Positions 13,405 through 54,561 of a stretch of DNA of 64,000 nucleotides are shown here, piece by piece. Position 1 is the first letter of the stretch. The number at the start of each line of letters is the position of its first letter. Origin of the DNA: Chloroflexota bacterium (GTDB lineage: Bacteria > Chloroflexota > Dormibacteria > CF-121); the NCBI GenBank assembly GCA_005880615.1, contig VBID01000114.1:93324-157323 (forward strand), read 5' to 3'. The notes beneath the pieces are model-generated. The model saw nothing but the letters and a program-made list of their open reading frames with translations, was not told where the DNA came from and made no database searches. The position numbers and the translations under genes were made by a program.

Positions 13405-13436
13405 ATAATCGGCGTCACCTCCGGAGGTGATGTCCG

Positions 13437-15176
13437 ATCGGCCAGGATCTCGAGACCCTTCGCCATTCCACCGCCCACGTAATGGCGGCCGCCGTGCTCG
13501 ACTTATTCCCCGGCACGGCCATCGGGATCGGGCCCGCGACCGACGAGGGATTCTATTACGACTTCGATTTCCGCAACGGCGGCCGCCCGGTGGAGGCCGA
13601 TCTGCGCCGGATCGAGGCGCGCATGCGCGAGATTGTTCGGGCGGCTCCCGCCTTCGTCAAGGAAGAAGTGCCGAAGCCGACGGCGGTGGAGCTCTTCCGC
13701 AAGCTCGACCAGCCGTACAAGGTCCAGCTGGTCGAGGAAAAGGTGACCGAACCGACGGCGCGGCTCTACCGGACCGGAGACTTCGTGGACCTCTGCCTGG
13801 GCCCGCACCTGCACGACGCCGGTCAGCTAGGGGCCTTTCGGCTACTCTCGCTGGCCGGCGCCTACTGGAAGGGCAGCGAGAAGAACCCGATGCTGACCCG
13901 GATTTACGGGACGGCCTTTCCCACCGAGGCCGAGCTGGAGGCACACCTCAAACGTCTGGAGGAGGCGGCCCAGCGGGACCATCGGAAGATCGGCAAGGAG
14001 CTCGACCTGTTCATGATCGACGACATGGCCGGCCGGGGCCTGCCGCTCTGGCTGCCCAAGGGGGCGACGGTGCGCCGGCTGTTGGAGGAGTACATCGTTA
14101 GGAAGGAATTGCGGGCAGGCTACCAGCACGTGCGCACCCCCGACATCGCCCGCCTCGACCTCTACAAGCAAAGCGGGCACTGGGCTCGCTACCGAGAGGC
14201 GATGTACCCACCCTCCAAGATCGAGGACGAGGAGTGGCAGCTGCGGCCCATGAACTGCCCCCACCACATCCGGATTTTCCAGCGCCGTGCCTACAGCTAT
14301 CGCGACCTGCCGGTGCGGCTGGCGGAGCTCGGCACCGTCTACCGCTACGAGAAGTCGGGCGAGGTGTCGGGGCTGATCCGGGTGCGCGCCTTCACCATCA
14401 ACGATGCCCACATCTTCTGCCGGCCGGACCAGGTGACCCAGGAGTTCGACGCCGTGGTCCGGCTGATTCTGGAGGTCTACGAAGCGCTGGGCGTCACCGA
14501 CTTCTACTTCCGCCTCTCGTTGCGTGACCAGACCAGTGACAAGTGGATGGGGGACCCGGCGGTGTGGGAGATGGCCCAGGAGGCGGCCCGCGCCGCACTC
14601 CGGGCGGGCGGGCACACGTTCGTGGAGGCCCCCGGGGAGGCCGCCTTCTACGGACCGAAGCTCGACGTTCAGATCAAGGACGCTATCGGCCGCGAGTTCA
14701 GCCTGTCCACCAACCAGATCGACTTCCTGATGCCCGAGGCCTTCGGCCTGGAGTACACCGATGCCGACCAGACCCAGAAGCGGCCGGTGATGATCCACCG
14801 CGCCCCCATCGGCTCCTTCGAACGCTTCATGGCCTACATGATCGAGCTCTATGCTGGGGCCTTTCCCCTCTGGCTGGCGCCGGTGCAGGTGGTCTTCATC
14901 CCTATCGCGGACCGCCACCTGGCCGGGGTGGAGGGTATCGCGGCGCGCTTTCGTGACCAGGACCTGCGGGTGGAGGTGGACGGCCGCGGCGAGCGGATGC
15001 AGGCCAAGATCCGGGACGCCCAGCTGCAGAAGGTGCCCTACATGGCGGTGGTGGGCGACCGCGAACTGGAAAGCGGCCAGGTCAACGTTCGGACCCGAGA
15101 CGGCGGCCAGGAAGCGCTGGCGGTCGAGGCGTTTCTTGACCGGCTGCGCCGCGAGAGCAAGGCGCCTAGCATATGA
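13437..15176 (+). CDS. thrS: Threonyl-tRNA synthetase lacking the N1 (TGS) domain
   Basis: The frame opens only at 13431, after TGA 13428-13430. The conserved editing motif HSTAH precedes the first ATG (13482). The only SD-adjacent start is ATC 13437 (GGAGG 13423-13427). Class II catalytic and anticodon-binding domains follow. Confidence 0.85.
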   Translation: MGQDLETLRHSTAHVMAAAVLDLFPGTAIGIGPATDEGFYYDFDFRNGGRPVEADLRRIEARMREIVRAAPAFVKEEVPKPTAVELFRKLDQPYKVQLVEEKVTEPTARLYRTGDFVDLCLGPHLHDAGQLGAFRLLSLAGAYWKGSEKNPMLTRIYGTAFPTEAELEAHLKRLEEAAQRDHRKIGKELDLFMIDDMAGRGLPLWLPKGATVRRLLEEYIVRKELRAGYQHVRTPDIARLDLYKQSGHWARYREAMYPPSKIEDEEWQLRPMNCPHHIRIFQRRAYSYRDLPVRLAELGTVYRYEKSGEVSGLIRVRAFTINDAHIFCRPDQVTQEFDAVVRLILEVYEALGVTDFYFRLSLRDQTSDKWMGDPAVWEMAQEAARAALRAGGHTFVEAPGEAAFYGPKLDVQIKDAIGREFSLSTNQIDFLMPEAFGLEYTDADQTQKRPVMIHRAPIGSFERFMAYMIELYAGAFPLWLAPVQVVFIPIADRHLAGVEGIAARFRDQDLRVEVDGRGERMQAKIRDAQLQKVPYMAVVGDRELESGQVNVRTRDGGQEALAVEAFLDRLRRESKAPSI

Positions 15177-16548: not shown

Positions 16549-16586
16549 TGTAAGGAGGTTGATCCACGGCCTTTCGGGAACTGCGA

Positions 16587-17114
16587 ATTAACGACCAGAT
16601 TCGTGCGCAGGAAGTTCGGCTCATCGATGACGAAAATCAGCAACTCGGGGTGGTATCCCTCGAGCGAGCGAAGCAACTGGCGATCGAGCGAGATATGGAC
16701 CTGGTCGAGGTGGCGCCCCAGGCGCAGCCGCCAGTGTGCCGGATCATGGACTACGGCAAGTTCAAGTTCGAAAGCCTAAAGAAAGACAAAGATGCACGCA
16801 AGAAGCACCAGAACATCAAGGTCAAGGAGATGAAGCTCCGCCCCAAAATCGGTGAGCACGACTTCCAGACCAAATTCCACAACGTCAAGTCCTTCCTGGA
16901 GCAGGGGGACAAGGTGAAGCTGACCATCATGTTCCGCGGCCGTGAGATGGTCCACCAGGATATCGGCAAGAACCTGCTGGACCGGATGGCCCGCGAGCTC
17001 AAGACGATCAGCAGCGTCGAGCGCACCCCCCTGCTGGAAGGGAAGAACATGATCATGATCCTGGCCCCGGTGTTGGCGCCGACCGCCGCCAAGCCAGCCT
17101 CGGAGGGCACCTAA
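16587..17114 (+). CDS. infC: Translation initiation factor IF-3
   Basis: RINDQIRAQEVRLIDDENQQLGVVSLERAKQLA matches the IF3 N-terminal domain. The frame is open from 16563 with no ATG/GTG/TTG before the conserved residues. ATT 16587 is the candidate start (E. coli-like AUU). The ORF track's GTG 16650 would cut into the N-domain. Confidence 0.8.
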   Translation: MNDQIRAQEVRLIDDENQQLGVVSLERAKQLAIERDMDLVEVAPQAQPPVCRIMDYGKFKFESLKKDKDARKKHQNIKVKEMKLRPKIGEHDFQTKFHNVKSFLEQGDKVKLTIMFRGREMVHQDIGKNLLDRMARELKTISSVERTPLLEGKNMIMILAPVLAPTAAKPASEGT

Positions 17115-22285: not shown

Positions 22286-22394
22286 GGGTCCCAATCGGAT
22301 AGGCACCCTGATCCGGCGCGAGGCTGACGTTATCGAGCGCCCCGATTCCCTGACCCGACCGCGGCTGGGCCGCGCCTTCTACGCGCGCGACCCG

Positions 22395-22946
22395 GTGACC
22401 CTGGCGCGCGACCTACTGGGTCGCATCCTTTTCTTCGACTCGCCCAAGGGGCTGCTGAGCGGCCGCATCGTGGAGACCGAGGCCTACACCGGCGCGGCCG
22501 ATCCCGCCTCCCACGCCTACCGCGGGGCCACCCCTCGGAACATGGTCATGTTCGGTCCCGCCGGGTACGCCTACGTCTATTTCACCTACGGCATGCACCA
22601 CTGCCTGAACGTGGTGGCCGGGCGGAGGGGCACGGCCGGCGCGGTCCTGCTGCGCTCGCTCGAGCCGCTCGGGGGGCTGGCCGTCATGCAGGACCACGGC
22701 GTGCGGGGCGGGGACGAGCGCCTCTGCAGCGGGCCGGGAAAGATCTGCAAGGCCTTCGGCCTCACCCTCCGGCACAACGGGTTGGATCTGACCCGCGGCC
22801 CGTTGGGGATCGCGGCCGGCCAACCGATTGACGACCGGCTGGTGGAGGTTGGAACGCGCATCGGGATTCGCCGAGCGGCGGACTTCCCCTACCGGTTCAC
22901 GATCGCCGGGAGCGGGAGCCTCTCGGTGCGCGCGCGCCCGGTGTGA
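22395..22946 (+). CDS. mpg: DNA-3-methyladenine glycosylase (AAG/MPG family)
   Basis: LLGRILFFDSPKGLLSGRIVETEAYTGAADPASHAYRG...YFTYGMHHCLNVV. The conserved PRLGRAFYARD lies upstream of GTG 22395 in frame, so the true start may be a non-canonical codon near 22350-22365. Confidence 0.8.
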   Translation: MTLARDLLGRILFFDSPKGLLSGRIVETEAYTGAADPASHAYRGATPRNMVMFGPAGYAYVYFTYGMHHCLNVVAGRRGTAGAVLLRSLEPLGGLAVMQDHGVRGGDERLCSGPGKICKAFGLTLRHNGLDLTRGPLGIAAGQPIDDRLVEVGTRIGIRRAADFPYRFTIAGSGSLSVRARPV

Positions 22947-29826: not shown

Positions 29827-30835
29827 CCGGCTGGTCGCCGGCAAGGAGCAGGTCGAGGAACGCGAGTTCGAGACCACGCTGCGGCCGCGCCGGCTGGCCG
29901 AGTTCATCGGCCAGACCGGAGTCAAGGCCAATCTCGAAGTCCTGATCTCGGCGGCCCGCCAGCGCCAGGAACCGGTGGAGCACATCCTGATCGCCGGCCC
30001 TCCGGGCCTGGGGAAGACGACCCTGGCCAACATCCTGGCCAACGAGATGGAGGTCAACATCCGCACCACCTCCGGCCCAGCGATCGAGCACCAGGGCGCG
30101 CTGGCCTCCATCCTGATGAACCTGGAGGACCGGGACGTGTTCTTTATCGACGAGATCCACCGCCTGGCCCGCCCGGTGGAGGAGAGCCTGTACCCGGCGA
30201 TGGAGGATTTCAAGTTCGACTGGGTCAGCGGCAAGGGCGCGGGCGCCACCCCGCTGCGCCTGCAGCTGCCGCGATTCACGGTGATCGGTGCTACCACCCG
30301 CCAGGGGATGCTCTCGGCCCCCCTGCGGGACCGGTTCGGAGCGGTCTACGCGCTCTATTTCTACGAAACCGAGGACCTCTTCCAGATCGTGACTCGGTCG
30401 GCGCGGCTGTTAAATGTGGCGATCGACGAGGCCGGCACCAGCGCCATCGCTCGTCGCGCCCGGGGCACCCCCCGGATCGCTAATCGCCTGTTGCGCCGGG
30501 TGCGGGACTATGCCCAGGTCCGCGCGTCGGGCTACATCGACGAAGGAGTGGCCCTGGCGGCCATGTCCATGCTGGAGGTGGATGACCTGGGGCTGGACTC
30601 GGTCGACCGCCGAATCCTGCGGACGATTGTTGAAAAGTATGACGGCGGGCCGGTGGGCGTGGAGACGGTGGCCGTCTCGGTCTCGGAGGATCCGGAGACG
30701 ATCGAGGATGTCTATGAGCCCTTCCTGATGCAGCTCGGGTTCCTCTCGCGGACACCCCGCGGGCGAGTCGCCACCAAGCTCGCCTACGACCACCTGGGAC
30801 TGGTCAAAGCGACCGAGCAACCGCGATTGCTCTAG
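29819..30835 (+). CDS. ruvB: Holliday junction DNA helicase RuvB
   Basis: AAA+ Walker [12 protein letters not shown] and sensor motifs. GTG overlaps the ruvA stop. Confidence 0.9.
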
Positions 30836-30879
30836 ACAAATCGCCGGCCGGGCGGCCGGCGGTCCACTGGGATCGGGCC

Positions 30880-32007
30880 ATCACGCTGGCGGCCATTGTC
30901 TTCCTAGCGTCCTTCTCGCTGTTCCTGTTCAGTGGGACGCTGCCGATCTACCTCTACCGGGATCGCGGTTTCTCGCTTTCGACGGTGGGCCTGCTGGTGG
31001 GGCTCGCCTTCGGCGTCCAGTTAGTGGCCACGCTGCTGTCCGGACCGGTGATCGATCGCTGGGGGGCGGGGCTGGCGCTGCGGGCCGGGCCGGCGCTCTA
31101 CCTGGCGGCCGCCGTGCTCTTCGTGGTTGCCCCGGAAGTCGTGCCGATTTCGGTGGCCCGCGTCTTGCAGGGCCTCGGGATCGCCCTGCTGCTGCCCGCC
31201 GCCTACACGCTCCTGCCCAGCCTGGTCGGGCCGCGACAGCGGGCCACCGCCTTCGGGGTGGTGGGCGTGATCCAGAACATTGCCCTGGCCATCGCCCCGC
31301 CGCTGGGACTCTGGCTCCTGAGCCGTGGCCCGAGCGTGCTTTTTGGTACGGCGGTGGCCGCCGCCGCGGCGGGGATGGTAGCGGGTCTGCGCCTTAGAGC
31401 CGGCCGGCCATCGGCTGCCCGCGCCAGCGTGTTCACCTATCGCGCCAGCTGGACGCCGCTGCTGGCCGCCACCTTCCTGACCATCGTGTACTGGGGCGTG
31501 ATCACGGCCTTTCTGCCGATCTATGTGACGCAGCATCACGGTGGCAATGTTGGCTGGTTCTTCACCGCCGATGCCATCGCCATCATGCTGTTGCGAATCC
31601 CCGCCGGGTGGCTCACGGATCGGATCGGCACCCGCTGGCTGCTGGTGACCGGTATCGTCCTCACCGATCTGGCGGTGCTGGCCCTGCTCTGGCCGCCGTC
31701 GTTGCCGGTGCTGGTGCTGTCGGGTGCGGGAACCGGGGCCGGTGCCGCCTTCCTGATTCCGCCGACGCTGCTGGAGCTGAGCAAGCGCAGCGACGAGGGG
31801 GACCGCGGAACCGCCATGGCCCTGTTTAGCAGCAGCTTCGCGGCGGCGCTGGGAGTGGGGAGCGTGGGTGGCACCCCACTGGTCACCCACTTCGGCTTCC
31901 TTGCCACGCTGGTGCTGAGCGCGGCCGTCTGCCTGGCCGCGGCCCCCATCGTGGTGGTTACGCTTCGATCAGGTGAAGACGAGCGACTTCGACTATCCCC
32001 TCCCTGA
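30880..32007 (+). CDS. MFS transporter (N-terminal start uncertain)
   Basis: The hydrophobic MFS frame is open from the ruvB stop region (30841) and encodes TM1 (AAIVFLASFSLFLF) upstream of the first GTG (30985). No ATG/GTG/TTG lies in 30841-30984. ATC 30880 is the candidate start. The 3' end overlaps queA by 35 nt. Confidence 0.6.
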   Translation: MTLAAIVFLASFSLFLFSGTLPIYLYRDRGFSLSTVGLLVGLAFGVQLVATLLSGPVIDRWGAGLALRAGPALYLAAAVLFVVAPEVVPISVARVLQGLGIALLLPAAYTLLPSLVGPRQRATAFGVVGVIQNIALAIAPPLGLWLLSRGPSVLFGTAVAAAAAGMVAGLRLRAGRPSAARASVFTYRASWTPLLAATFLTIVYWGVITAFLPIYVTQHHGGNVGWFFTADAIAIMLLRIPAGWLTDRIGTRWLLVTGIVLTDLAVLALLWPPSLPVLVLSGAGTGAGAAFLIPPTLLELSKRSDEGDRGTAMALFSSSFAAALGVGSVGGTPLVTHFGFLATLVLSAAVCLAAAPIVVVTLRSGEDERLRLSPP

Positions 32008-37462: not shown

Positions 37463-38536
37463 GTGCTGAAGTCTGATTTCATCAAGGCGCTCGACCAGAT
37501 CCAGGAGGAGAAGGGGATCTCGAAGGATTCGCTTCTCATGCTGGTGGAGAGCGCCCTCGCCACCGCCTACCGGCGCGCCTTTAACGCCGACACCGCTCGA
37601 GTCCGGATCGATCCGGACACGGCGCAGGTGTCCATCTTCGGCCGGCGTACGGTGGTCGACCGAGTGCAGGACGCCGCCACGGAGGTTTCCCTGGCGGACG
37701 CTCGGCGTGAGCGTCCGGAGGCGGCGCTAGGGGAGAGTCTCGAAGTGTCGATTCCCACCGAGGACTTCGCCCGCCTGGCCGCCCAGATCAGCAAGCAGGT
37801 GGTGTTCCAGCGCTTGCGCGAGGCGGAGAAAGACCAGGTCCTCAAAGACGTGCTCGAGCACCGCGGCGAGATGGTGAGCGGCGTCGTGGATCGAATCGAG
37901 GAGCACGGTGGCGAGAAGGTCGTCTACCTCGAGCTGGGCAAAGCGGAAGGCGTCATGCCCCCGGAGGAGCAGATCCCGGGCGAGTCGCTGCGGCCGGGCC
38001 AGCGGGTCAAGGTCCTGCTGCTGGAGCAGCGGCGGCACGGGCGCGGCGCCCAGGTCCTGGTCTCGCGAGCCCACAAGGCCTTCATCCGCCGGCTGCTCGA
38101 GTTCGAGATCCCCGAGGTGGCCTCGGGGGCGGTGCAAATCCGGGCGTTGGCCCGAGAACCCGGGGTCCGCACCAAGGTTGGGGTGTCGGCGACGCAGCCG
38201 GGCTTGGATCCGGTGGGGGCCTGCATCGGGCCGCGGGGAGTCCGGCACCGGTCGGTGGTGAGCGAGCTGGGCAACGAGCGGGTGGACTTCATTCCGTGGG
38301 CAGATGACCAGCCGACGCTGGTGGCCAACGCGCTCAGCCCGGCGACTGTGCTGGGCGTCGACATCGACCGCGCCGGCCGAACGGCGACGGCGCATGTCCC
38401 GGAGGGCCAGCTGTCCCTGGCCATCGGCAAGGAGGGCCAGAACGTCCGGCTGGCCGCCAAGCTGACGGGATGGCGAATCGACATCAAGCCGGTGACCGCG
38501 GCGGAGAGCGAGGCCAGACACGCCACCACGGCTTAG
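37463..38536 (+). CDS. nusA: Transcription termination/antitermination factor NusA
   Basis: N-terminal domain (ALESALATAYRR), S1, KH1/KH2 (IGKEGQNVRLAAKLTGWRIDIK). Confidence 0.9.
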   Translation: MLKSDFIKALDQIQEEKGISKDSLLMLVESALATAYRRAFNADTARVRIDPDTAQVSIFGRRTVVDRVQDAATEVSLADARRERPEAALGESLEVSIPTEDFARLAAQISKQVVFQRLREAEKDQVLKDVLEHRGEMVSGVVDRIEEHGGEKVVYLELGKAEGVMPPEEQIPGESLRPGQRVKVLLLEQRRHGRGAQVLVSRAHKAFIRRLLEFEIPEVASGAVQIRALAREPGVRTKVGVSATQPGLDPVGACIGPRGVRHRSVVSELGNERVDFIPWADDQPTLVANALSPATVLGVDIDRAGRTATAHVPEGQLSLAIGKEGQNVRLAAKLTGWRIDIKPVTAAESEARHATTA

Positions 38537-38552
38537 CCCGCCCCCGCTACGA

Positions 38553-38813
38553 ACGTGCGTCGCCTGCCGGCAATCCAAGCCCAAGCGCGAGCTGGTCCGG
38601 CTGGTCCGCGGCGCCGACGGCGTAGCCGTCGACCCGACCGGGCGGGCGCCGGGTCGGGGGGCTTACCTGTGCCGGGACCCAGCCTGCTGGCGAGTCGCGG
38701 AGAAGAAGCGGAGCCTGGAGCGGGCGCTGGGGGGTCCCATCCGTCGAGAGGATTGGCTGCGGCTGTCCGCGGGAATACTGAATTCAGTTCAGGCGACTAG
38801 TATCATTCCTTAG
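38553..38813 (+). CDS. ylxR: YlxR-family (DUF448) RNA-binding protein, start codon unresolved
   Basis: The frame +1 relative to the ORF-track ORF encodes RTCVACRQSKPKRELVRLVRGADGVAVDPTGRAPGRGAYLCRDPACW (a canonical YlxR motif) through to TAG 38811-38813. No in-frame ATG/GTG/TTG lies between the upstream TGA (38493-38495) and the CxxC motif. Confidence 0.6.
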   Translation, partial: TCVACRQSKPKRELVRLVRGADGVAVDPTGRAPGRGAYLCRDPACWRVAEKKRSLERALGGPIRREDWLRLSAGILNSVQATSIIP

Positions 38814-38849
38814 TTCGGCGTAATCCAGAGTTCATTCAGAGGAGTTCGT

Positions 38850-40847
38850 ATCGCTACTCAGACCCGTGGCATCAAAGTTCAACAGCTGGCGCGCGACCTC
38901 GGGGTCGAGGCCCGCGACATCCTGGAGTTCCTGAAGACGTATCGGCGTGCCCCGCGGCATGCCATGGCCGTGCTCACCCCGGACCAGGAGGCCGCGGCGC
39001 GGACTCAGTTCGCCCAGGCGGCCGCCCCGGTGGAGGCCGCCAAGCCCAGCGAGACCAAGGGGGTCCAGCTACCGCCCAGCGTCAGCGTGAAGGAGCTGGG
39101 GGAGTACCTCGGCGTCAGCGCCGTGGAGATCATCAAGGAACTGATGCGCAACGGCATCATGGCCAACATCAACCAGCAGATCGACTTCGACACGGCTGCC
39201 CTGGTCGCCGACACGTTCGGCATCCAGGCCTCGCCGATGGCGATGGACGCGGCCATCACGGAGGAGATCGTGGGCGAGGACACCAGCCAGGTCAAGATGA
39301 CCACCCGCTCCGAGCTCTTCAGCCTGGATGGAGAGGACCCGGCCAACCTGAGGCCCAGGCCGCCGGTGGTCACCGTCATGGGCCACGTCGACCATGGCAA
39401 GACCTCGCTACTGGACGCCATCCGACAGACCAAGGTGGCGGCGGGGGAGGCGGGCGGCATTACCCAGCGCATCGGCGCCTACTCGGTGGAGGAAAAGGGC
39501 CGCCCCGTGGTCTTCCTGGATACCCCCGGTCATGAAGCCTTCACCGCCATGCGGGCCCGCGGCGCCCAGGTCACGGATGTCGTGGTCCTGGTGGTGGCCG
39601 CCGATGATGGCGTGCAACCGCAGACAATCGAGGCCCTCTCCCACGCCAAGGCGGCGGGCGTGCCCATCGTGGTGGCCATCAACAAGATCGACCGCGAAGG
39701 GGCCAACCCGGAGCAGGTCATGCGGCAGCTTAGCGACCATGGCTTGGTGCCGGAGGCCTGGGGTGGCCAGACCGTCATGGTGCCCGTCTCGGCCAAGCAG
39801 AAGAAGGGCATCGGCGACCTCCTGGACATGATCCTGCTGGTTTCGGAGCTCCAGGAACTCAAGGCCAACCCCGCCAAGCCGGCCGCTGGCACCGTCATCG
39901 ACGCCCACCTCGAGAAGGGCCGAGGCCCGGTGGCCACGGTGCTGGTGCAGACCGGCACCCTCCGGGTCGGGGACAACATGGTGGTGGGGCATATCTTCGG
40001 CAAGGTGCGCGCCCTGCTGAATGATGAGGGCAAGAAGATGAAGGAAGCGGGTCCGGCCACCCCCGCGGTGGTGACCGGCCTACCCGACGTCCCCACCGCG
40101 GGTGACGTCTTCCAGGTGGTCTCCACCGAGAAGGTGGCCCGCACCATCGCCATGCAGCGAGCCGAGCAGCACCGGGTAGCTACCCTGGCGCAAACTCGCC
40201 GGGTGACGCTCGCCGACCTGGCGGCGCAGGTCCAGGAAGGCAAGATCAAGGACCTAAACCTGGTGCTCAAGGCCGAGAGCAACGGGTCGGTCGAGGCCCT
40301 GAAGAGCTCGCTGCTGAAGATCCAGGACCCGCAGGTCCGGATCAACATCGTCTTCGAGGGCGTGGGCGGAGTCACGGAGTCAGACATCCTGCTGGCGGCC
40401 GTCTCCAACGCTCTGGTCATCGCCTTCAGCGTCAAGCCCGACGCCGCCGCCCAGCGGGCGGCCGAGCGCGAGAAGGTCGATATCCGCCAGTACGACGTCG
40501 TGTACAACGTGACCAATGACATCGAGAAGGCCATCAAGGGCCTCTATGAGCCGACCTTCGTGGAGGTCTGGGAGGGCCGCGCCGAGGTGCTCCAGCCCAT
40601 CAAGATCCCCAAGGTCGGCAACATCGCCGGCTCCCGCGTCGTGGATGGCAAGATCTCCCGCGACTCGAGGGTCAAGATTTCCCGCGACGGCCAGCTGCTG
40701 CTGGAGGGACAGATCGTGGCTTTGAAGCGCTTCAAAGACGACGTCAAAGAAGTCACCGTGGGCCTGGAGTGCGGGATCCAGGTGGAGGGCTTCCAGGACT
40801 TCCAGACCGGTGACGTGCTGGATGCGTACCTGGTGAAACAGGCGTGA
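38850..40847 (+). CDS. infB: Translation initiation factor IF-2
   Basis: The IF2 N-domain (IKVQQLARDLGVEARDILEFLKT) is encoded upstream of the first ATG (38964), in frame. The frame opens after TAG 38811-38813 with no canonical start. ATC 38850 sits 5 nt after AGAGGAG. G-domain GHVDHGKTSLLD...DTPGHEAF...NKID. Confidence 0.85.
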   Translation: MATQTRGIKVQQLARDLGVEARDILEFLKTYRRAPRHAMAVLTPDQEAAARTQFAQAAAPVEAAKPSETKGVQLPPSVSVKELGEYLGVSAVEIIKELMRNGIMANINQQIDFDTAALVADTFGIQASPMAMDAAITEEIVGEDTSQVKMTTRSELFSLDGEDPANLRPRPPVVTVMGHVDHGKTSLLDAIRQTKVAAGEAGGITQRIGAYSVEEKGRPVVFLDTPGHEAFTAMRARGAQVTDVVVLVVAADDGVQPQTIEALSHAKAAGVPIVVAINKIDREGANPEQVMRQLSDHGLVPEAWGGQTVMVPVSAKQKKGIGDLLDMILLVSELQELKANPAKPAAGTVIDAHLEKGRGPVATVLVQTGTLRVGDNMVVGHIFGKVRALLNDEGKKMKEAGPATPAVVTGLPDVPTAGDVFQVVSTEKVARTIAMQRAEQHRVATLAQTRRVTLADLAAQVQEGKIKDLNLVLKAESNGSVEALKSSLLKIQDPQVRINIVFEGVGGVTESDILLAAVSNALVIAFSVKPDAAAQRAAEREKVDIRQYDVVYNVTNDIEKAIKGLYEPTFVEVWEGRAEVLQPIKIPKVGNIAGSRVVDGKISRDSRVKISRDGQLLLEGQIVALKRFKDDVKEVTVGLECGIQVEGFQDFQTGDVLDAYLVKQA

Positions 40848-41753: not shown

Positions 41754-42750
41754 GCTCTCTCCCCCGCGCCCGGAGGTGGCCGAGGCGGCCCCCCGCATCT
41801 GGTCGATTGTCGCGTCGGCCACGGCATTGGGAGCGATCTGTCACAAAGACGCCGACGGCGACACGCTGGGGTCGGCGCTGGCGTTCCGGTTCGCCCTCCA
41901 GCCACTGGGCAAGCGGGTCAGCGTGGTCGCCTCGCCGCCGGTCCCGCAGGCGTGGTGGTTTCTGCCGGGAATCGAGACGGTGAACGCCACCTCCCTGCCC
42001 TCGGGCGGCCCCCTGTTCATCTTCGACTCGACCGGACCGGAACGGGCCGGGATTCACGCCGACACCATCCGGCGGGCGCCGGTCGTGGTCAACATCGATC
42101 ATCACATCTCCAACCCTGGTTTTGGATCGGTGGACCTGGTCATCACCGAGGCCGCCTCGACCGGGGAGATCGTCTTCGACTTGCTCAAGGCCTGGAAGGT
42201 CCAGATCCCCCCCGAAGCCGCGGCCAACCTGTACGCCACCATCCTGTCCGACACGGGCGGTTTCCGGCACGACAACACCTCCGAGCGCGCGCTGCGGGCG
42301 GCCGCCGAGCTGGTTTCGCTGGGGGCCGACCCGGCGCTGATCGCCCGCGGTCTGTTCAAGAGCCGGCCGGCGTCGACGCTGCGGATGCAGGGCCGGATCC
42401 TGCAGAGCCTCCATTTCGAGTGCGGGGACCGGTTGGTCTGGGGGGCGATCACCCAGGCCGATCTGCGCGACACCGGCGCCTTGACCGAACAGGCCGATGG
42501 CGCCATCGATCAGCTCAACACGGTGCGGGGAGAGGAGATCGCCATCCTGTTCAAGCAGGTCAGTCCGGTGCTGACCAAGGTCAGCATTCGGACGCGCGAG
42601 CAGGTGGACGCCGCCGCCCTGGCGGCCGAGTTCGGGGGAGGCGGACACCGCCGCGCCTCGGGCCTCGAGCTGGAGGTACCGCTGTCCGAGGCGGAAGGCC
42701 GCGTGCTGCAAGCGGCGCGGCGGGTGCTTGGCTGCCCGGAGCCCGACTGA
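41746..42750 (+). CDS. nrnA: DHH/DHHA1 phosphoesterase (NrnA-like oligoribonuclease/pAp phosphatase)
   Basis: DHH motifs (ICHKDADGDTLGSALA, NIDHH) and DHHA1 GGGH. Confidence 0.8.
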   Translation: MAELSPPRPEVAEAAPRIWSIVASATALGAICHKDADGDTLGSALAFRFALQPLGKRVSVVASPPVPQAWWFLPGIETVNATSLPSGGPLFIFDSTGPERAGIHADTIRRAPVVVNIDHHISNPGFGSVDLVITEAASTGEIVFDLLKAWKVQIPPEAAANLYATILSDTGGFRHDNTSERALRAAAELVSLGADPALIARGLFKSRPASTLRMQGRILQSLHFECGDRLVWGAITQADLRDTGALTEQADGAIDQLNTVRGEEIAILFKQVSPVLTKVSIRTREQVDAAALAAEFGGGGHRRASGLELEVPLSEAEGRVLQAARRVLGCPEPD

Positions 42751-43643
42751 CCGTCTCCACGAAGGTTCACGCCGGCCTGCTCAACATCGCCAAGCCTCCG
42801 GGCGTGACCTCGTTCGGCGTCGTCCACCGGGTGCGCCGGCTGACCGGGGTGCGCCGGGTCGGCCACGGCGGCACCCTGGACCCGGCGGCCGACGGGGTGC
42901 TGCCGGTGCTCATCGGACCGGCCACCCGACTGACCGAGCTGGTGCACGAGTGGCCAAAGACCTACCGGGCCACCCTGCAGCTGGGGGCGACATCGACCAC
43001 CTATGATGCCGAGGGCGTGGTCACCCCGCGGTCGGATCCCAGCCGGGTGAACGAGGCGATGATCACCGCCCTGCTGCCGGACTTCGTGGGGCACATCGCG
43101 CAGGTGCCACCTCTCTATTCGGCGCTCAAGGTGGGAGGCGAGCCCCTCTATCGAAAGGCGCGGCGCGGGGAGACCGTAGCACTGGTCGCCCGACCCGTCC
43201 AGATCATCGGGATAGCGCTGCGGTCTTTCGACCAGGCGACCGGTCGGGCCGTGATCCATGTCCAGTGCGGCCGGGGTGCCTACGTTCGCAGCCTGGCCCA
43301 TGACCTGGGGGCCCGACTCGGGTGCGGCGCCTATCTGGCGGCATTGACCCGCACGGCGGTGGGGCCACTCCAGCTGGCGGACGCCGTACTGCTGGGAACC
43401 CTGGAGCAGGCGGGCCCGAACTGGGAGCGCTGGCTGCTGGCGCTGGACCTTCCGCTGCGCGACTGGGCCGCCATCACGGTCGACGCCGGGCAGGCCCTGG
43501 CGCTCAGCCATGGCCAGCCGATGGGACCGCAGCCCGTGGCGGCCGGCCGCTACCGGGTGATCGATGAGACCGGCCGGCTGCTGGCCTGGGGTGTGATCGA
43601 TGCCGCGGGGCGGTTTGCGCCGGCCGGGGTTTTCCCGCCGTGA
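42729..43643 (+). CDS. truB: tRNA pseudouridine(55) synthase
   Basis: HAGLLNIAKPPGVTSFGVVHRVRRL...GHGGTLDP catalytic Asp motif. TTG 42729 is the only canonical start before the conserved block, and it overlaps nrnA by 22 nt. Confidence 0.85.
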   Translation, partial: WLPGARLTVSTKVHAGLLNIAKPPGVTSFGVVHRVRRLTGVRRVGHGGTLDPAADGVLPVLIGPATRLTELVHEWPKTYRATLQLGATSTTYDAEGVVTPRSDPSRVNEAMITALLPDFVGHIAQVPPLYSALKVGGEPLYRKARRGETVALVARPVQIIGIALRSFDQATGRAVIHVQCGRGAYVRSLAHDLGARLGCGAYLAALTRTAVGPLQLADAVLLGTLEQAGPNWERWLLALDLPLRDWAAITVDAGQALALSHGQPMGPQPVAAGRYRVIDETGRLLAWGVIDAAGRFAPAGVFPP

Positions 43644-44575
43644 GCCTGACCGTCCGCTTCGGGTTCCCGGATCCGGGGATGTTTGGCCCGGTGCACGCCA
43701 CCATTGGCACCTTCGATGGCCTGCACCGGGGCCACCTCAGAGTGGTGACCCCGGTCATTGAGGGGGCCCGCGCCGCGGGGGTGGTCAGCCTGGTGGTGAC
43801 GTTTGAGCCACATCCGCGCTGCGTGCTCGATCCCGACCACTGTCCGCAGAACCTGACGACCCTGGATGAGAAGACCTGGTTGCTCGACCAGCTCGGCCTG
43901 GACCACCTGCTGGTCATCCCGTTCACGCCCCAGGTGGCGGCCCTGAGCCCGGCCGACTTCATGCGCCGCCTGACCCGCGGCATGCAACTCCAGCATCTCT
44001 TCGCTGGCTATGACTTCGCCTTCGGGCGGGGCCGCCGGGGCGACCACACGTTCTTGCGCCAGCTGGGTACCCGGCAGGGGTTTGCGCTGGATGTGGTCCC
44101 GGCGCAGGAACGTGGCGGCGAGCCGATCAGCAGCTCTCGCATCCGGCGGCTGCTCTTGCTGGGCCAGGTACGGGCCGCGTCGCAACTCCTCGGCCGCGAC
44201 TACTTCCTGCGCTCGGTGGTGGAGCAGGGGGCCCAGCGGGGCAAAGGGCTGGGATTCCCCACGGCCAACCTGAAGATCACGCCCAACAAGTTGCTGCCGG
44301 CCAACGGGGTGTACGCTGTCCGGGTCGACCTGGAGGGGGCCGAGTATCAGGGCGCCCTGAACCTGGGGTTTCGTCCCACGTTTGGCGGCCATGCCCTGAC
44401 CGTCGAAGTCTTCCTCTTCGACTACCAGGGCGACCTGTACGGCAAACTGCTGACAGTGTTCTTCGTCCAGCGACTGCGGGGGGAGCGGCGGTTCGCCTCT
44501 GTTACCGCGCTCCAGCACCAGATCAGCCGGGATGTGGAGACCGCACGACGGGTCCTGAGCCGCTCGTCATCGTAA
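43640..44575 (+). CDS. ribF: Bifunctional riboflavin kinase/FAD synthetase
   Basis: ATIGTFDGLHRGH adenylyltransferase motif and C-terminal riboflavin kinase domain. Confidence 0.85.
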   Translation: MSLTVRFGFPDPGMFGPVHATIGTFDGLHRGHLRVVTPVIEGARAAGVVSLVVTFEPHPRCVLDPDHCPQNLTTLDEKTWLLDQLGLDHLLVIPFTPQVAALSPADFMRRLTRGMQLQHLFAGYDFAFGRGRRGDHTFLRQLGTRQGFALDVVPAQERGGEPISSSRIRRLLLLGQVRAASQLLGRDYFLRSVVEQGAQRGKGLGFPTANLKITPNKLLPANGVYAVRVDLEGAEYQGALNLGFRPTFGGHALTVEVFLFDYQGDLYGKLLTVFFVQRLRGERRFASVTALQHQISRDVETARRVLSRSSS

Positions 44576-45450
44576 ACCCGGTCGCGGGCGATGGCCGGGC
44601 GCGCCGGTTCTGGGCCCGCGGCGCCGCCGCCTGTGCTGCCGCCGGGGTGAACGTGAACGTCGTCTGGACCACCCGGCGCGGCGCCGCCGCCGAGGCCGCG
44701 GCCACCGCCAACGGGCAAACCGTGATCGCGGTGGGCGGCGATGGCACCATCCACGAGGTGGTGAACGGATTGCTGCGTCGGCCGGGAACGGCGCGGCCCC
44801 GTTTCGGAGCCCTGCCCGCCGGAACGGGCGGCGACTTCTGCCGCAGCCTGCCCGGACCGCGCGACCCGGCCCTGATCCCGGGGTGGCTCCAGGCGTCCCG
44901 GTTCAAAACCATCGACGCGGCGCGCGCCGCCACCTCCAACGGCCGGCGATTCTTCATCAACGCGGCCGATGCCGGCATCGGGGCCCGCATCGCCCGCCGG
45001 GCGGTCGCTGCCCCGGCGCTGCTGGGCGGGACCGCTCGGTACCTTGGCGCCGCCGCCTGGAGCCTCATGGTGCACCGAAACGTGGCGGTGCGCCTCCGCC
45101 TCGACGACGGGCCGACCGAGCGCCTCCGAGTCTGGACCATCGTGGTGGCCAACGGCGGCTATGCCGGCAGTGGCATGTGGCTGGCGCCCGACGCCAGGCT
45201 GGATGACGGGTGGCTGGATGTGGTGATCATCGGCGACATCGGGCGGCCACTGGCTATCCGCAGCCTCCCGCTGCTGTACCAGGGAAAACATGGACGGCTG
45301 GCGCAGGTGCGCTTCGCCCGGGCCCGCCGGGTGGAGATTGAGGCCGAGACCCCCGCCCAGGTCCAGGCCGATGGCGAGCTGGTGGGGGAGACGCCCGCCG
45401 TCTTCGAGGTGATACCGGGAGCCCTGGACGTCCTCTCGTGGGACGGCTGA
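44569..45450 (+). CDS. DAGK_cat-family lipid kinase (YegS/diacylglycerol kinase-like)
   Basis: The conserved N-terminus LVIVNPVAGDGRARRF and the GGDGT motif are in one frame, which has no ATG/GTG/TTG for more than 200 nt upstream of GTG 44647. ATC 44569 is the candidate start, overlapping the ribF stop. Confidence 0.7.
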   Translation: MVNPVAGDGRARRFWARGAAACAAAGVNVNVVWTTRRGAAAEAAATANGQTVIAVGGDGTIHEVVNGLLRRPGTARPRFGALPAGTGGDFCRSLPGPRDPALIPGWLQASRFKTIDAARAATSNGRRFFINAADAGIGARIARRAVAAPALLGGTARYLGAAAWSLMVHRNVAVRLRLDDGPTERLRVWTIVVANGGYAGSGMWLAPDARLDDGWLDVVIIGDIGRPLAIRSLPLLYQGKHGRLAQVRFARARRVEIEAETPAQVQADGELVGETPAVFEVIPGALDVLSWDG

Positions 45451-45638
45451 GCCCGAACCCACAGAAACGAACTTGCATCTCGGATGCGGCCTGAGCCCGA
45501 GGCCGGGCTCCGAGCGTCGTCTCCTGTGCGCGCTCGGTCACGCATCGACGGATGCGCTCCCTCGCCTGCTCGTCGCCTCCTTCGGCTCGGCGCGCCCCGC
45601 ATCTCAATCTGCTTCGTCCGCTCGGTGGATCCGGGCTG
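45450..45638 (+). mobile_element. MITE-like element copy B (about 190 bp, imperfect TIRs)
   Basis: It begins at the DAGK stop codon. The core is about 90% identical to the reverse complement of 13227-13387. Termini AGCCCGAACCCACAG ... CGGTGGATCCGGGCTGG are inverted. Internal direct repeats CGTCGTCTCC and CGTCGCCTCC. Central palindrome CGCATCGACGGATGCG. Confidence 0.5.
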
Positions 45639-46120: not shown

Positions 46121-46783
46121 GTGAAGCCGATCCGAGCCCTGGTGTTCGACTTCGACGGCCTCATCGTCGAAACCGAGGAGCCCATCTTCCGGGCCTGGCA
46201 GCGCATCTACCGCGAGCAGGGGCAGGAGTTGCCGCTCGAGATCTGGGTCACCATCATCGGTACGTCCTCCGGACCCTTCGATCCGATCCAGTACCTGGAG
46301 GAGCGGGTCGGCCGTCCGCTCGACCGGCAGCGTTTCGACGACCTGGAGCGCCGCTACTACGAGGAAGCGACCGCCCTGCAGCGGCTGATGCCGGGGGTGG
46401 CCGAGTACCTGCGAGACGCCCGCCGGTTGCACCTGGGGGTGGGCATCGCGTCCAGCTCCAGGCGCGCCTGGGTCCTCGAGCATCTGAAGCGGTTCGCCAT
46501 CGCCGATGCCTTCGACGCCGTCGTCTGCCGGGAGGACGTGACGCGCACCAAGCCGGATCCGGAACTCTACCTCGAGGCTACAAAGCGACTGACGGTCATG
46601 CCTGAGGAAGCCCTGGCCCTGGAGGATTCCAGCAACGGCATCGCCGCCGCCAAAGCGGCCGGCCTGCGCTGCGTGGCCGTCCCCACCGTGATGACCGCCA
46701 GCCTGGATCTGAGCCGCGCCGACCTGAGGATCCCATCCTTAGGAGCGGTCTCCCTAACTGACCTGCTGGCTCAGATCGGCTGA
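46121..46783 (+). CDS. HAD-IA family hydrolase (beta-phosphoglucomutase-like)
   Basis: VFDFDGLIVETEE (motif I DxD) and later S/T and K-x(n)-D HAD motifs. Confidence 0.75.
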   Translation: MKPIRALVFDFDGLIVETEEPIFRAWQRIYREQGQELPLEIWVTIIGTSSGPFDPIQYLEERVGRPLDRQRFDDLERRYYEEATALQRLMPGVAEYLRDARRLHLGVGIASSSRRAWVLEHLKRFAIADAFDAVVCREDVTRTKPDPELYLEATKRLTVMPEEALALEDSSNGIAAAKAAGLRCVAVPTVMTASLDLSRADLRIPSLGAVSLTDLLAQIG

Positions 46784-47059
46784 TTCTTTTTCGAGCGACT
46801 CACGCACCTCGTGGAGGTACGCCACCAGATCGGCGCTAGAGAGATCGGCCCGGGCGTGCCGCATCCGCTCGACGGCCACGCCGGCCATGAAGCTGGCCAG
46901 TGGGGCAAACCGACGTTCCTGCGTGTGGGCCGCCACCCTGGCCAGGTCCAGGATCTCGGCCGCCACGTCCGGGTCAAGCTCCGGAGGATCAATGGCCGCT
47001 TGTCGGCGGAAGGCAGCCTCGACCAGCCGCCGGCCCAGCGCCGTCAACCAATCATTCAT
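46754..47059 (-). CDS. Hypothetical protein, divergent from the fdh operon
   Basis: ATG at 47059 (- strand). No recognisable domain. Overlaps the HAD gene 3' end convergently by 30 nt. Confidence 0.4.
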   Translation of the reverse strand: MNDWLTALGRRLVEAAFRRQAAIDPPELDPDVAAEILDLARVAAHTQERRFAPLASFMAGVAVERMRHARADLSSADLVAYLHEVRESLEKESADLSQQVS

Positions 47060-47071
47060 GGTTCAGACAGT

Positions 47072-47101
47072 TTGACATGATCGCTATCTGGTCCTTATCA
47101 T
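47072..47101 (+). promoter_or_regulatory. Sigma70-like promoter (TTGACA-N17-TTATCA) upstream of fdnG
   Basis: TTGACA at 47072-47077 and TTATCA(T) at 47095-47101, about 40 nt upstream of ATG 47139. Confidence 0.4.
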
Positions 47102-47138
47102 CAACGGGTTCGCGGCCGGGGAAGATGAGGTAGGGCGA

Positions 47139-50100
47139 ATGCCTGAACTTACGCGCCGGGCTTTTTTGAAACTGAGCGCCGCGGGGACCGGCGCCGCCGG
47201 GCTCACCGCCCTGGGGTTCGATACCGCGTCAGCGGTCCAGGTCACCCAGAACTTCCGCATTGCCGGGGCGCGCGAGTCGCACTCGGTCTGCCCTTACTGC
47301 GCGGTCGGCTGCGCGCTGGTCGCGTACACGCAGGACAATGCCGACGGCAGCCGCCGCCTCCTGCAAATCGAGGGCAACCCGGACAGCCCGGTGAACGAAG
47401 GCCGCCTGTGTCCCAAGGGCGCTACCGCCATGCAGCTGGCGACCAGCGCCCGGCGAGTGGAATCGCCGATGTACAGGGCGCCGGGCAGTGACCACTGGCA
47501 GAAGATCACCTGGGACGACCTGCTGAACAAGCTGGCTCAGCGCATCAAAGACGCCCGAGACGCCACCTTCGTCGCCCAGGATGGCAGTGGGAACACCGTC
47601 AACCGCACGGAGGGGATCGCCTTCGCCGGCGGCGCCGCCTTCAGCAGCGAAGAAGGGTACTTCGCCACCAAGGTGATGCGCGGCCTCGGCCTGGTCCATC
47701 TCGAACAGCAGGCACGGGTTTGACACGGGCCCACGGTGGTCAGTTTGGCCGCCACATTCGGGAGAGGGGCCATGACCAACCACTGGCGCGACATCAAGAA
47801 CGCCGACCTGATCCTGATCAACGGCGCCAACCCGGCGGAAGCCCATCCGGTCGGCTTTCAATGGTTCGTCCAGGCTAAGCTCGATCCCCAGCGTGGCCCG
47901 GGCGCCGGCGGCGGCGCCAAGATCATCCACGCCGACCCGCGCTTCACGCGCACGTCGGCGTTGGCCGATATCTACGCCCGCATCCGAACCGGCACCGACG
48001 TCGCCTACTTCGGCGGGCTGATCAACTACGTGCTGCAAAACAACCTCCATCACGAGTCGTACGTCACCAATTACACGAACGCCTCCTTCCTGGTGAAGAA
48101 GGAATACGGGTTCACCGATGGGCTCTTCAGCGGCTACGATCCCAAGGCCCGCAAGTACAACACCGCCTCCTGGGGCTACCAGATCGATGACGCCGCTAGC
48201 GTCGCTTATAACGCGGCCCATCCGCCGGCCGGCGGCGCGGTCGCCACCCTGGCCAAGCGCGACCTGACCTTGCAGGACCCGCAGACCGTGTTCCAGCTCA
48301 TGAAGCAGCACTATTCCCGGTACACGCCAGAGATGGTCTCGCGGATCACGGGCATTCCGCAGGACCAGTTCTTGCGGATCGCCAAGCTGGTGGGGGAGAT
48401 GGGGCAACCCAACAAAGTGATGACGATCGTCTACGCGGTCGGCCTCACCCACCACACGACCGGGGGCGAGCTGATCCGGTCGGGGGCCGTCCTCCAGTTG
48501 CTGCTGGGCAACATGGGCCGCCCCGGCGGCGGCATGAACGCCGAGCGCGGTCATGCCAATATCCAGGGTAACACCGACCACGCCATCTCCTGGGAGATCC
48601 TGCCGGGGTACCTGCAAATCCCGGCGCCGCAACGCAAGACCATCGACGAGTACGTGGCGGCACAAGCACCCAAGAAGCTGGACCCACAATCGTGGAACTT
48701 CTTCGGAACCAACTACAAGAAGTTCATGGTCAGCCTGCTGAAGGGCTGGTACGGGGACGCCGCCACCAAGGACAACGACTTCGCCTTCAATTTCATCCCC
48801 AAACCGGGCCAGAACTCGTCGTGGATGTCCATCTACGACCAGTCGCTGAAGGGCAAGATGCAGGGCCTGATTCTTTCGGGGATGACGGCGACCAGCATCG
48901 GCCCTGATTCGAACCGGGTGATGGAGGCCCTGGCCAACCTGAAGTGGCTGGTCGTGATGGACGCGCTGCCGACCACCAGCTCGGAGTTCTGGCGCCGCCC
49001 CGGGGCCAGCCCGGCGTCTATCCAGACCGAGGTCTTCATGGTGCCGACTACCCACTGGATCGAGAAGGACGGCTCCTTCACCAACAGCGGCCGGTGGGCG
49101 CAATGGAAGGAGCAGGTCCTGCCCCCACAGGGGCAAGCCCGGCACGATCACTGGATCCTGGCCGACCTCTTCCAGCGGGTGAAGACCCTCTACCGGCAGC
49201 AGGGCGGCAAGTTCCCGGACCCGATCATCGCCCTGACCCTCAAGTACCAGGACCCGGCCAAGCCGCAGCTGGACGAGATCGCCCAGGAGATCAACGGCTT
49301 CGATCTGACCACCGGCAAGCGGATGAGCAGCTTCGCCAACCTGAAGGACGATGGGACCACCACCGCCGGTGACTGGATCTACACCGGCAGCTACCCGGAC
49401 AGCGGCAACCTGATGAAGCGGACGGACGGCATTCAGGATGTGAAGACCAACGACCCGACCGGGATGGGGTTCTTCCCCAAGTGGGCCTGGTCCTGGCCGC
49501 TCAACCGCCGGGTGCTGTACAACCGGGCCTCGGCCGACCTGGAGGGCAAGCCCTGGGACCAGACCCGCCCCGGCATTACCTGGAACGGAAGCAAGTGGGT
49601 CGGGGACGTGCCCGACTACCCGGCCACCATGAAGCCGTACACCCTGGATCCGAAGGCGTGGCTGCCGTTCATCATGACCGGCGAGGGGACCGGCCGCCTG
49701 TTCAGCACCTCAATGCTCGACGGGCCCCTCCCCGAGCACTACGAGCCGGTCGAAGCACCGGTGGCCAACCCCCTTCATCCAGGCCAGTCGGCCTCCCCGG
49801 TGGCCTTCCTCTATTCAGGGGGCGGCTCGTTCGGAGCGGCCAAGGACAGCTTTGGGACGGTCGCCGACTACCCGTACGTCGCTACCAGCTACCGCCTGAC
49901 CGAGCACGAGCACTATGTCACCCAGCACGTGCCCCTGCTGGTCGGGCTGCAGCCGCATCCGTTCGTTGAGGTCCCCGAGGAGCTGGCCAAGGAGAAGGGC
50001 ATCCAGACGGGCGACCGGGTGCGGGTGACGTCCAAGCGCGGCAAGATCGAGGTCCTGGCCCTGGTCACCAAGCGGCTGGCAGCCAGCACCATCGACGGCA

Positions 50101-51055: not shown

Positions 51056-51056
51056 A

Positions 51057-52717: not shown

Positions 52718-52837
52718 CCGGGCCGCGACCCGACCGCGCCCGCCGTTACGGCGGCGTAACGCTTTCGGCTGGGACGGACAGACCCCTCTGGGCCTGCCGT
52801 TCTCTCAGATAGATCCCACGTCAGAGGAGGAAACCTC

Positions 52838-53524: not shown

Positions 53525-53543
53525 CTCAACGTCGGTTGACGAA

Positions 53544-53579: not shown

Positions 53580-53593
53580 GCCGTGAGATCGGC

Positions 53594-54188: not shown

Positions 54189-54297
54189 TCTCCCTGGGTT
54201 TCACGGTAAGCCGTATTCGGTATACTTCCGAGCGACTCGGCGCAGGTGTTCGACTTGCCAACGGCACCCGGGCTGAGCAGCCAAAGGAGGTCACAGA

Positions 54298-54561
54298 CTG
54301 GCAGCAACAGCAAAAGTACAGGTCATCGCCGATAATCGTCGCAGCGAGAAGGACACCGGGTCGGCGGAGGTCCAGATCGCCATCTTCTCGGAGCGGATTA
54401 GCCACCTCACCGACCACCTAAAAGACCACAAGCGCGATCAAGGCTCGCGGCGTGGGCTGCTCCAACTGGTGGGGAAGCGGCGCCGTCTCCTGAACTATCT
54501 GCAGCGCGAGGACATCGAGCGCTACCGGGCCCTGGTCGCCAAGTTAGGGCTGCGGAGGTGA
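54298..54561 (+). CDS. rpsO: 30S ribosomal protein S15
   Basis: [86 protein letters not shown] is encoded in the frame +1 relative to the ORF-track ORF at 54185-54421. The frame opens at 54277 with no ATG/GTG/TTG. CTG 54298 lies 7 nt after AAGGAGG (54284-54290). Confidence 0.8.

Follow-up and report, generated by a model that had tools for sequence, protein, structure and literature searches.

Non-canonical start regions in the window

This study concerns a stretch of 64,000 nucleotides (nt) from a Chloroflexota bacterium of the class Dormibacteria (contig VBID01000114.1, positions 93,324 to 157,323 of the forward strand), hereafter called the window. Several of its genes, among them infB (initiation factor IF2), infC (IF3) and rpsO (ribosomal protein S15), encode a conserved N-terminus upstream of their first ATG, GTG or TTG codon. 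The GC content of the window is 64–70%, and that of its source genome, from an uncultured soil bacterium (Candidatus Dormibacteraeota), is 67%; the encoded IF2 and ThrS match proteins of metagenome-assembled genomes listed as Candidatus Dormibacteraeota or Chloroflexi. About 63 genes were considered, corresponding to 65 stop-to-stop open reading frames (ORFs) that were translated, and the ORFs with a sizeable open stretch 5′ of the first canonical codon were scanned against NCBIfam. Based on NCBIfam and Pfam profile searches, a profile-homologous N-terminus upstream of the first canonical codon was found in nine genes, all on the + strand: thrS, infC, mpg, an MFS transporter gene, ylxR, infB, truB, a DAGK-family gene and rpsO. 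In all nine, the frame from the upstream stop to the conserved N-terminal residues is free of ATG, GTG and TTG. A canonical start fits the N-terminus-reaching profile match in pheT, ruvA, ruvB, ruvC, queA, secF, rimP, nusA, ribF, metG, nadE and recA, among others.

The original prediction had put the affected genes at six to eight of about 65, far above the usual rate. The count now stands at nine with the addition of truB, which was absent from that list, and the coordinates given earlier for infB, thrS, rpsO, the DAGK-family gene, the MFS gene and mpg were all correct; the rate, however, is inflated by the many translation genes that the window contains. At a generous per-gene rate of 0.5%, nine genes of 63 would be affected by chance with p = 4e-11, and the five best-supported cases alone with p = 2e-5.

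An exact-protein look-up found 13 contigs from ENA, JGI and NCBI assemblies that carry the exact 627-amino-acid (aa) IF2 protein, and six of these were retrieved and aligned to the window (97.4–99.98% identity). In these six independent assemblies, obtained from different samples and by different pipelines, the start regions of infB and the DAGK-family gene are base-for-base identical, and those of ylxR differ by one synonymous CTA/CTG change and one substitution upstream. In relatives with 68–96% identity in the IF2 N-terminal region, the odd start codons are either kept or replaced by ATG at the very same position. Alignment to orthologues, proposed earlier as a check of the N-termini, gave relatives with ATG at the positions of the ATC codons (infB in locus L087; thrS; mpg), not at the downstream ATG or GTG. 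The codons are shared across assemblies and species; an artefact would be a lesion private to one assembly. Judged by these alignments, the observation is real and is no assembly artefact.

The infB start

The infB coding sequence (38850..40847) opens with an ATC codon at 38850, located 5 nt after the Shine–Dalgarno (SD) sequence AGAGGAG (38838–38844). The frame is open from 38814, next to the TAG at 38811–38813, and contains no ATG, GTG or TTG before ATG 38964, which agrees with what had been predicted for this gene. Relatives of infB were collected by the exact-protein look-up and by a metagenome scan using an alignment of the lineage-specific IF2 N-terminus. In the 38 Dormibacteria loci that could be read, the counterpart of ATC 38850 is ATA in 30, ATC in seven and ATG in one (L087), always 3′ of an SD of the AAAGGA or GGAGGA type. 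The preceding stop codon varies in the relatives (TAG, TGA or TAA), and in L115 a TAG directly abuts the ATA. The encoded N-terminal peptide is conserved as (I/M)AT(T)(Q/T)TRGIKVQQLARDLGVEA.

The 32 codons from the RGIK motif to the internal Met39 were compared in 37 distinct sequences, with an entropy of 0.25/0.21/0.90 at codon positions 1/2/3. The same analysis found no such periodicity in the leader upstream of the infB start. The periodicity before Met39 indicates that the upstream region is translated, and the ATH codon is then the sole available start. Met39 is invariant in the relatives, most of which have their IF2 called from this conserved internal Met at 627–629 aa, as against about 665 aa from the upstream codon. 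The N-terminal segment had been labelled an IF2 N-domain. Pfam IF2_N reports the second copy (residues 77–125) and gives no match within the first 50 residues; for the extreme N-terminus the label rests on resemblance.

The ylxR and infB genes share a reading frame (38496–40847), parted by one TAG (38811–13) and 12 sense codons. This is probably coincidental, the relation being absent in L088. A conserved TATCAT box at 38801–06 suggests that infB has its own promoter.

The rpsO start

The rpsO feature (54284..54561, stop at 54559–54561) begins with the SD AAGGAGG (54284–54290), and CTG 54298 follows at 7 nt, as had been proposed; the earliest canonical codon is number 65 of 94. In all 14 Dormibacteria loci containing rpsO the start is CTG, arranged as (T)AGGAGGT, 7–9 nt, CTG GCA, with an in-frame TAG inside the SD in eight of them. 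Position 1 of the Pfam S15 profile corresponds to residue 6 counted from the CTG. Control loci from other phyla, taken among the matches listed (~50% identity) in a contig scan with full-length IF2, have ATG or GTG at the expected distance in 24/24 cases. Gene callers report S15 in Dormibacteria at 34, 63 or 104 aa.

The rpsO leader (54219–54297) contains a conserved −10-like box, GGTATACT, and a conserved hairpin (54239–54278) whose loop, GCCAACGGCA, is invariant and which shows some compensatory changes among 11 loci. The leader has no Rfam match; an Rfam scan at the gathering threshold found a tRNA-Val only and no known leader RNA. It is a candidate for S15 autoregulation.

The infC start

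The infC feature (16552..17114) begins with the SD AAGGAGG (16552–16558), followed by TGA (16560–62) and an ACG codon at 16566. The same arrangement is present in 6/6 loci: [A/G]AGGAGG, two variable bases, TGA, TC[C/A], ACG, GCN, TTT, MGG, GAR, CTN. The ACG is invariant in these loci and follows a perfect SD at 7 nt. Just two codons, TCC and ACG, lie between the AFRELR peptide and the stop before it, and every substitution in the AFRELR codons is synonymous, including a change from CGA to AGG. Counted from the ACG, the length of the IF3 N-terminus matches the solved IF3 structures of Thermus and Geobacillus. From the SD-to-ACG spacing, the invariance of the codon, the synonymous AFRELR changes and the IF3 length, we conclude that infC starts at ACG 16566.

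The start had been assigned earlier to ATT 16587. This codon exists, but is internal and 28 nt away from the SD; L171 has CTC at this site and four further relatives have ATC, and the SD duplex energy is −4.3 kcal/mol for ATT versus −11.7 kcal/mol for ACG. ATT 16587 was rejected in favour of ACG 16566 for its lack of conservation and its poor SD pairing.

Just 5′ of the infC SD, all six loci have a terminator-like hairpin (AAGATAGCC-N4-GGCTATC followed by T7; window 16521–16546). By analogy with L20 attenuation in Bacillus subtilis, it may be an attenuator of the infC-rpmI-rplT operon.

The thrS and mpg starts

In thrS (13423..15176), the SD GGAGG (13423–27) precedes ATC 13437 by 9 nt, and the RHSTAH motif is encoded before the first ATG (13482), in line with the earlier description. 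An out-of-frame ATG (13430) follows the SD at a distance of only 2 nt. In the species cluster, about 24 ThrS proteins from independent assemblies of many samples have the same truncated call of 564 aa; relatives with 76–90% identity have 576–579 aa and the N-terminus M-x-x-DLETLRHST. The codon homologous to ATC 13437 is ATG in all five relatives examined as DNA (L171–L175). The NCBI annotation of ThrS, MGQDLETLRHST (protein P0121), corresponds to the ATC start.

The ThrS of this lineage (576–579 aa; window 13437–15176) opens at the editing domain with its HxxxH motif and is without the N-terminal TGS domain. A conserved TATAAT box (13404–13409) lies upstream of thrS.

For mpg, encoding 3-methyladenine DNA glycosylase (22332..22946), the earlier claim of a conserved N-terminus upstream of the first canonical codon (GTG 22395) holds, the homologous N-terminus lying 10–12 residues upstream of it, and the start is now set to ATC 22332, with GCGAGG 8 nt upstream. 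The window sequence ATC GAG CGC corresponds to ATG GAG CGC in L171, and mpg of L175 has no canonical start either. The peptides of rpsO, thrS and mpg upstream of the first canonical codon are conserved in relatives.

Candidate ylxR, truB, DAGK-family and MFS gene starts

The case of ylxR (rnpM) proved stronger than predicted: not only the part before the CxxC motif but the whole 105-codon ORF (38496..38813) is without ATG, GTG or TTG. The best candidate is ACG 38520, 6 nt after GCGAGG (38508–13). The codon before GCA GCG GCG is ATG, CTG, ACG or ATC, depending on the locus, and a further group of relatives has ATG or TTG a few codons downstream. YlxR is often not called in the relatives' annotations. 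The NCBI choice in L004, CTA/CTG 38547, was rejected: the codon varies between CTA, CTG and CTT as an ordinary Leu codon does.

The truB gene (42747..43643) has no canonical codon upstream of the conserved motif GLLNIAKPPG. Relatives have GTG, ATG or TTG three codons before GILNV, where this species and L091 have GTT. The probable truB start is CTG 42747, in a CTGA overlap with the stop codon of the DHH-family gene before it; the alternative, CTG 42732, is the start codon in the NCBI call of L004. CTGA in place of GTGA or ATGA was found also in queA of four relatives and in three loci of the DAGK-family gene.

In the gene for the DAGK/YegS-family lipid kinase (44545..45450), the predicted upstream extension stands, since the homologous N-terminus lies 28–31 residues upstream of the first canonical codon. 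The codon proposed for it, ATC 44569, which overlaps the ribF stop (ATCGTAA), is disfavoured: it would leave the first strand without its conserved PLV, and position 3 of the Pfam DAGK_cat profile aligns with the L of PLVIVNP, upstream of this ATC. ACG 44545/44548, preceded by GGAG (44536–39), fits better. Seven loci, including the window, have GGAG, 5–8 nt and ACG where other loci start canonically; the starts in relatives are GTGA, ATGA or CTGA, or GGAG-N7-8-ACG.

The MFS transporter gene (30826..32007) has its first transmembrane helix upstream of the first GTG (30985), as had been stated, with the profile-homologous N-terminus about 37 residues upstream of the first canonical codon. The ATC 30880 proposed earlier is one of two candidates, the other being ATT 30826, located 7 nt before the ruvB stop TAG (30833–35). 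Two relatives in all are informative; L088 has CTGA at the ruvB junction.

Strength of the SD sequences

The SD duplex energies are −12.1 kcal/mol for rpsO, −11.7 for infC, −10.8 for thrS and −8.5 for infB, while most values in 21 canonical control genes lie between about −2 and −8 kcal/mol. The well-supported non-canonical cases carry the strongest SDs in the window. SDs at a functional spacing precede the proposed starts of infB, rpsO, infC, thrS and ylxR; those of mpg, truB and the DAGK-family gene are weaker, and none precedes the MFS start candidates at such a spacing.

Interpretation of the non-canonical starts

Based on the above results, we suggest, with a probability of roughly 0.85, that the nine genes are truly translated from near-cognate codons one position off AUG. 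The codons themselves, their conservation, the translation of the upstream peptides and the strength of the SDs are established. With the same confidence we assign AUC or AUA to infB, thrS and mpg, CUG to rpsO and probably to truB, and ACG to infC and probably to ylxR and the DAGK-family gene. The earlier proposal that this lineage initiates frequently at AUC, AUU and CUG is thereby supported with a changed set of codons (AUA/AUC, CUG and ACG, with AUU as an MFS candidate only), and three of its eight start assignments (infC, the DAGK-family gene and mpg) had to be revised.

Several points weigh against this reading. ACG is not known to be among the starts listed in NCBI translation table 11. 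We know of no precedent for a natural bacterial ACG start, and a literature search for one found none. The lineage is represented here by metagenome assemblies alone. The DAGK-family gene, the MFS gene and truB have more than one candidate start each, and ylxR in L095, L105 and L116 shows no class I or near-cognate codon at the expected place, so it may be under some other arrangement there. IF3 itself looks orthodox, with R25, Q33 and R66 (E. coli numbering) conserved. In 14 control gene families, scored with queries begun at the inferred starts, the homologous start is canonical in every scorable relative; tblastn of stop-to-stop ORFs was discarded for this purpose, since it over-called missing starts and, in close relatives, also aligned the off-frame translation of an overlapping upstream gene. 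An out-of-sample stretch of 10 kb past the window end was read on L176, a 32.6 kb contig with an identical recA and the same neighbouring genes; canonical starts fit 8/9 of its genes, leaving 0–1/9 affected. From the control families and this stretch, the pattern looks gene-specific plus sporadic and not a uniform 10% of all genes.

The suspect out-of-sample gene is spoVS (L176 14515–14784, about 4.5 kb past the window end in the same genome), which reads ATT GAG ATT CTG AAG. B. subtilis SpoVS presumably begins MEILK, its Met aligning with the ATT. The called GTG start cuts into the conserved EILK; no SD is obvious before the ATT, and the frame contains an ATG 39 codons 5′ of it. By this alignment, spoVS is a possible further near-cognate start.

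Four other explanations were weighed. The original prediction had named systematic assembly error as an alternative, with indels or miscalls destroying canonical starts, and the out-of-frame ATG 13430 just 3′ of the thrS SD would by itself look like an indel. The identity of the infB and DAGK-family starts in six independent assemblies, with ylxR nearly so, the same truncated call in about 24 ThrS and the presence of the same codons in distinct species (infB 38 loci, rpsO 14, infC 6) leave this explanation virtually no probability, and we regard it as effectively refuted by these comparisons. It is very improbable that the proteins begin at the downstream ATG or GTG and that the upstream conservation reflects a non-coding leader RNA. 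Gene callers do pick the downstream codons, and the invariant Met39 of IF2 would suit such a start, so that a short isoform may also exist; but this reading leaves S15 with 30 residues and ylxR without any canonical codon, and it does not fit the three-base substitution periodicity before Met39, the wholly synonymous substitutions in AFRELR of infC, the hidden Markov model profiles aligning 5′ of the canonical codons or the ATG of orthologues exactly at the ATC positions. Recoding from the upstream gene, by stop readthrough or frameshifting (a NusA–YlxR or YlxR–IF2 fusion, or a +1 shift after ATG 13430 in thrS), is improbable as well. It draws on the common frame of ylxR and infB with a TAG between them, on the overlap of ylxR with the nusA 3′ end in the +1 frame without a start codon, and on the three relatives without a recognisable ylxR start. 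The frame relation is lost in L088, though, the stop before infB is variable, the nusA stop shows no conserved slippery site (GCT-TAG, GTC-TGA, CAC-TGA, TCC-TGA), and SDs stand at the right spacing before the proposed starts; frameshifting or readthrough was therefore rejected for ylxR, infB and thrS, there being no conserved signal and the frame relation and stop context being variable.

A genome-wide relaxation of start fidelity, caused by an altered IF3, 16S rRNA or initiator tRNA and followed by neutral drift with no gene-specific regulation, deserves more weight, though it still seems unlikely. It would account for 9/63 genes being affected and for the species-level turnover from ATG to ATC and from GTG to CTG in non-translation genes (mpg, the DAGK-family gene, queA and the MFS gene). 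Against it, infB has ATH in 37/38 loci and rpsO has CTG in 14/14, with almost no reversion to ATG, which argues for selection over drift; the control and out-of-sample genes are almost all canonical; and there is a weak enrichment of translation-related genes (6/21 affected versus 3/42 of the others; Fisher p = 0.05). Exclusion of non-canonical starts is a function of IF3, to which R25, Q33 and R66 contribute in E. coli (PMC9723500). With all three residues conserved, and with F at position Y75 as in Geobacillus, the IF3 encoded here is, on sequence grounds, probably proficient. An IF3 defect was accordingly rejected as the cause, and nothing suggests globally relaxed fidelity.

Returning to the proposed near-cognate initiation, two layers can be distinguished in the comparisons. 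The conserved, class-wide non-canonical starts of infB, infC and rpsO look selected, and the species-level turnover between ATG or GTG and near-cognate codons in thrS, mpg, truB, queA, ylxR and the DAGK-family gene looks tolerated. The first layer suggests start-codon-based control of the translation machinery. The ordinary initiator tRNA (fMet-tRNA) would pair imperfectly with the near-cognate codon, the ribosome being recruited by an unusually strong, well-spaced SD or by an NTGA stop/start overlap; we infer the exact initiation codons, fMet as the first residue and the dependence on IF3. The near-cognates would be codons that IF3 discriminates against in E. coli, and expression of infC, infB and rpsO would then be reduced by plentiful IF3 and raised by a shortage of it. 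Feedback of the infC type would in this way extend to other parts of the translation apparatus, namely IF2 and S15. Sussman and co-workers are said to have placed ACG in 1996 with CUG, AUU, AUC and AUA among the class IIA codons under IF3 discrimination. IF3-autoregulated control would call for a near-cognate start on infC itself, and such a codon, ACG, is present there in 6/6 loci.

An IF3-sensed start-codon regulon (IF3 on ACG, IF2 on AUA/AUC and S15 on CUG, with thrS, truB and rnpM/ylxR as variable members), in a lineage that tolerates near-cognates including ACG in several percent of its genes, is a tentative proposal that we hold possible but somewhat short of probable. If there is such a regulon, the cell balances its initiation machinery via start-codon stringency; if the tolerance is real as well, a sizeable part of the N-termini recorded for Dormibacteraeota in public genomes would be mis-annotated.

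Relation to known systems and consequences

The principle is already known from infC and pcnB (AUU) of E. coli and from sigR (GTC) of Streptomyces. In well-annotated bacterial genomes, 99.95% of the annotated starts are ATG, GTG or TTG, confirmed non-canonical starts in E. coli are limited to infC and pcnB, and ACG and AUC starts give Met-initiated protein (10.1101/063800). E. coli infC, which like pcnB starts with AUU and is IF3-autoregulated, resembles the present case in having a conserved near-cognate codon on the same gene, in the negative feedback logic that follows from a codon disfavoured by IF3 and in being routinely mis-annotated by gene callers (10.1101/063800; PMC5472188). It differs in that the codon here is ACG instead of AUU, AUC or AUA, accompanied by a perfect AAGGAGG SD, and in that the principle appears to be extended to infB (AUA/AUC) and rpsO (CUG), where dependence on IF3 would be expected.

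Streptomyces sigR has a GTC start with a very strong SD and is repressed by IF3 (Feeney et al. 2017, PMC5472188). The likeness lies in a lineage-conserved non-canonical start behind a very strong SD (AGGAGGTG in sigR), mis-annotated in all genomes, which sets protein stoichiometry. Whereas sigR is one regulatory gene of Actinobacteria studied by experiment, the present set comprises several translation and other genes of a Chloroflexota-related class and rests on comparative evidence. The NTGA starts of truB in the window, and of queA, the DAGK-family gene and the MFS gene in relatives, resemble ATGA/GTGA overlap coupling, but with an overlapping CTG where orthologues have ATG or GTG. In E. 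coli, re-initiation is reduced when IF3 is overexpressed (PMC2268962). Finally, ylxR, in the +1 frame at the nusA stop and with no start codon of its own, recalls +1 frameshifting in prfB; in contrast to prfB, it has no conserved slippery codon or in-register stimulatory SD, and the starts in other relatives are an ordinary GTGA, ATG or TTG.

What appears new is the lineage-wide AUA/AUC of infB, the lineage-wide CUG of rpsO, the ACG of infC and the frequent CTGA junctions; a literature search on start codons of Dormibacteraeota found nothing. The NCBI annotation already uses ATC (thrS and the DAGK-family gene) and CTG (ylxR, truB and mpg), but not the infB start. IF2, S15, IF3, ThrS, TruB, YlxR and others are systematically truncated or missed in Dormibacteraeota genomes, and such mis-called N-termini affect phylogenies built from marker genes and estimates of completeness. 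Very few bacterial genes have a confirmed near-cognate start, and three core translation genes on three different near-cognates offer a natural test of IF3-based initiation homeostasis; with a conserved ACG on infC, the natural repertoire of bacterial starts would grow by one codon. The 5′ regions are short and can be moved into E. coli reporters, which makes the idea directly testable.

Additional features of the window

A repeated element of ~150–180 nt is present in two inverted copies, 13210–13366 (−) and 45481–45637 (+), which are 92% identical. Both copies are intergenic, one 5′ of thrS and the other 3′ of the DAGK-family gene, and further copies were found in L171 (18668–18796), L087 (6460–6589) and L091 (9268–9413). 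The element has a strong predicted fold of −70.9 kcal/mol, a value calculated without a shuffle control. A small mobile element and a non-coding RNA are both conceivable.

Compared with L088–L090, the window contains an insertion of ~7 kb (46754–54200) between a GYD-family gene and rpsO, which includes fdhA, fdhB and fdhE for formate dehydrogenase and several other genes. The gene for the formate dehydrogenase alpha subunit (47139–50276) is interrupted by an in-frame TGA (47721–47723) in the context ARV*HGPT, a site which we take to be the selenocysteine position of FdnG-type enzymes. Directly 3′ of this TGA lies a stable hairpin, and gene callers report two ORFs of 194 aa and 834 aa.

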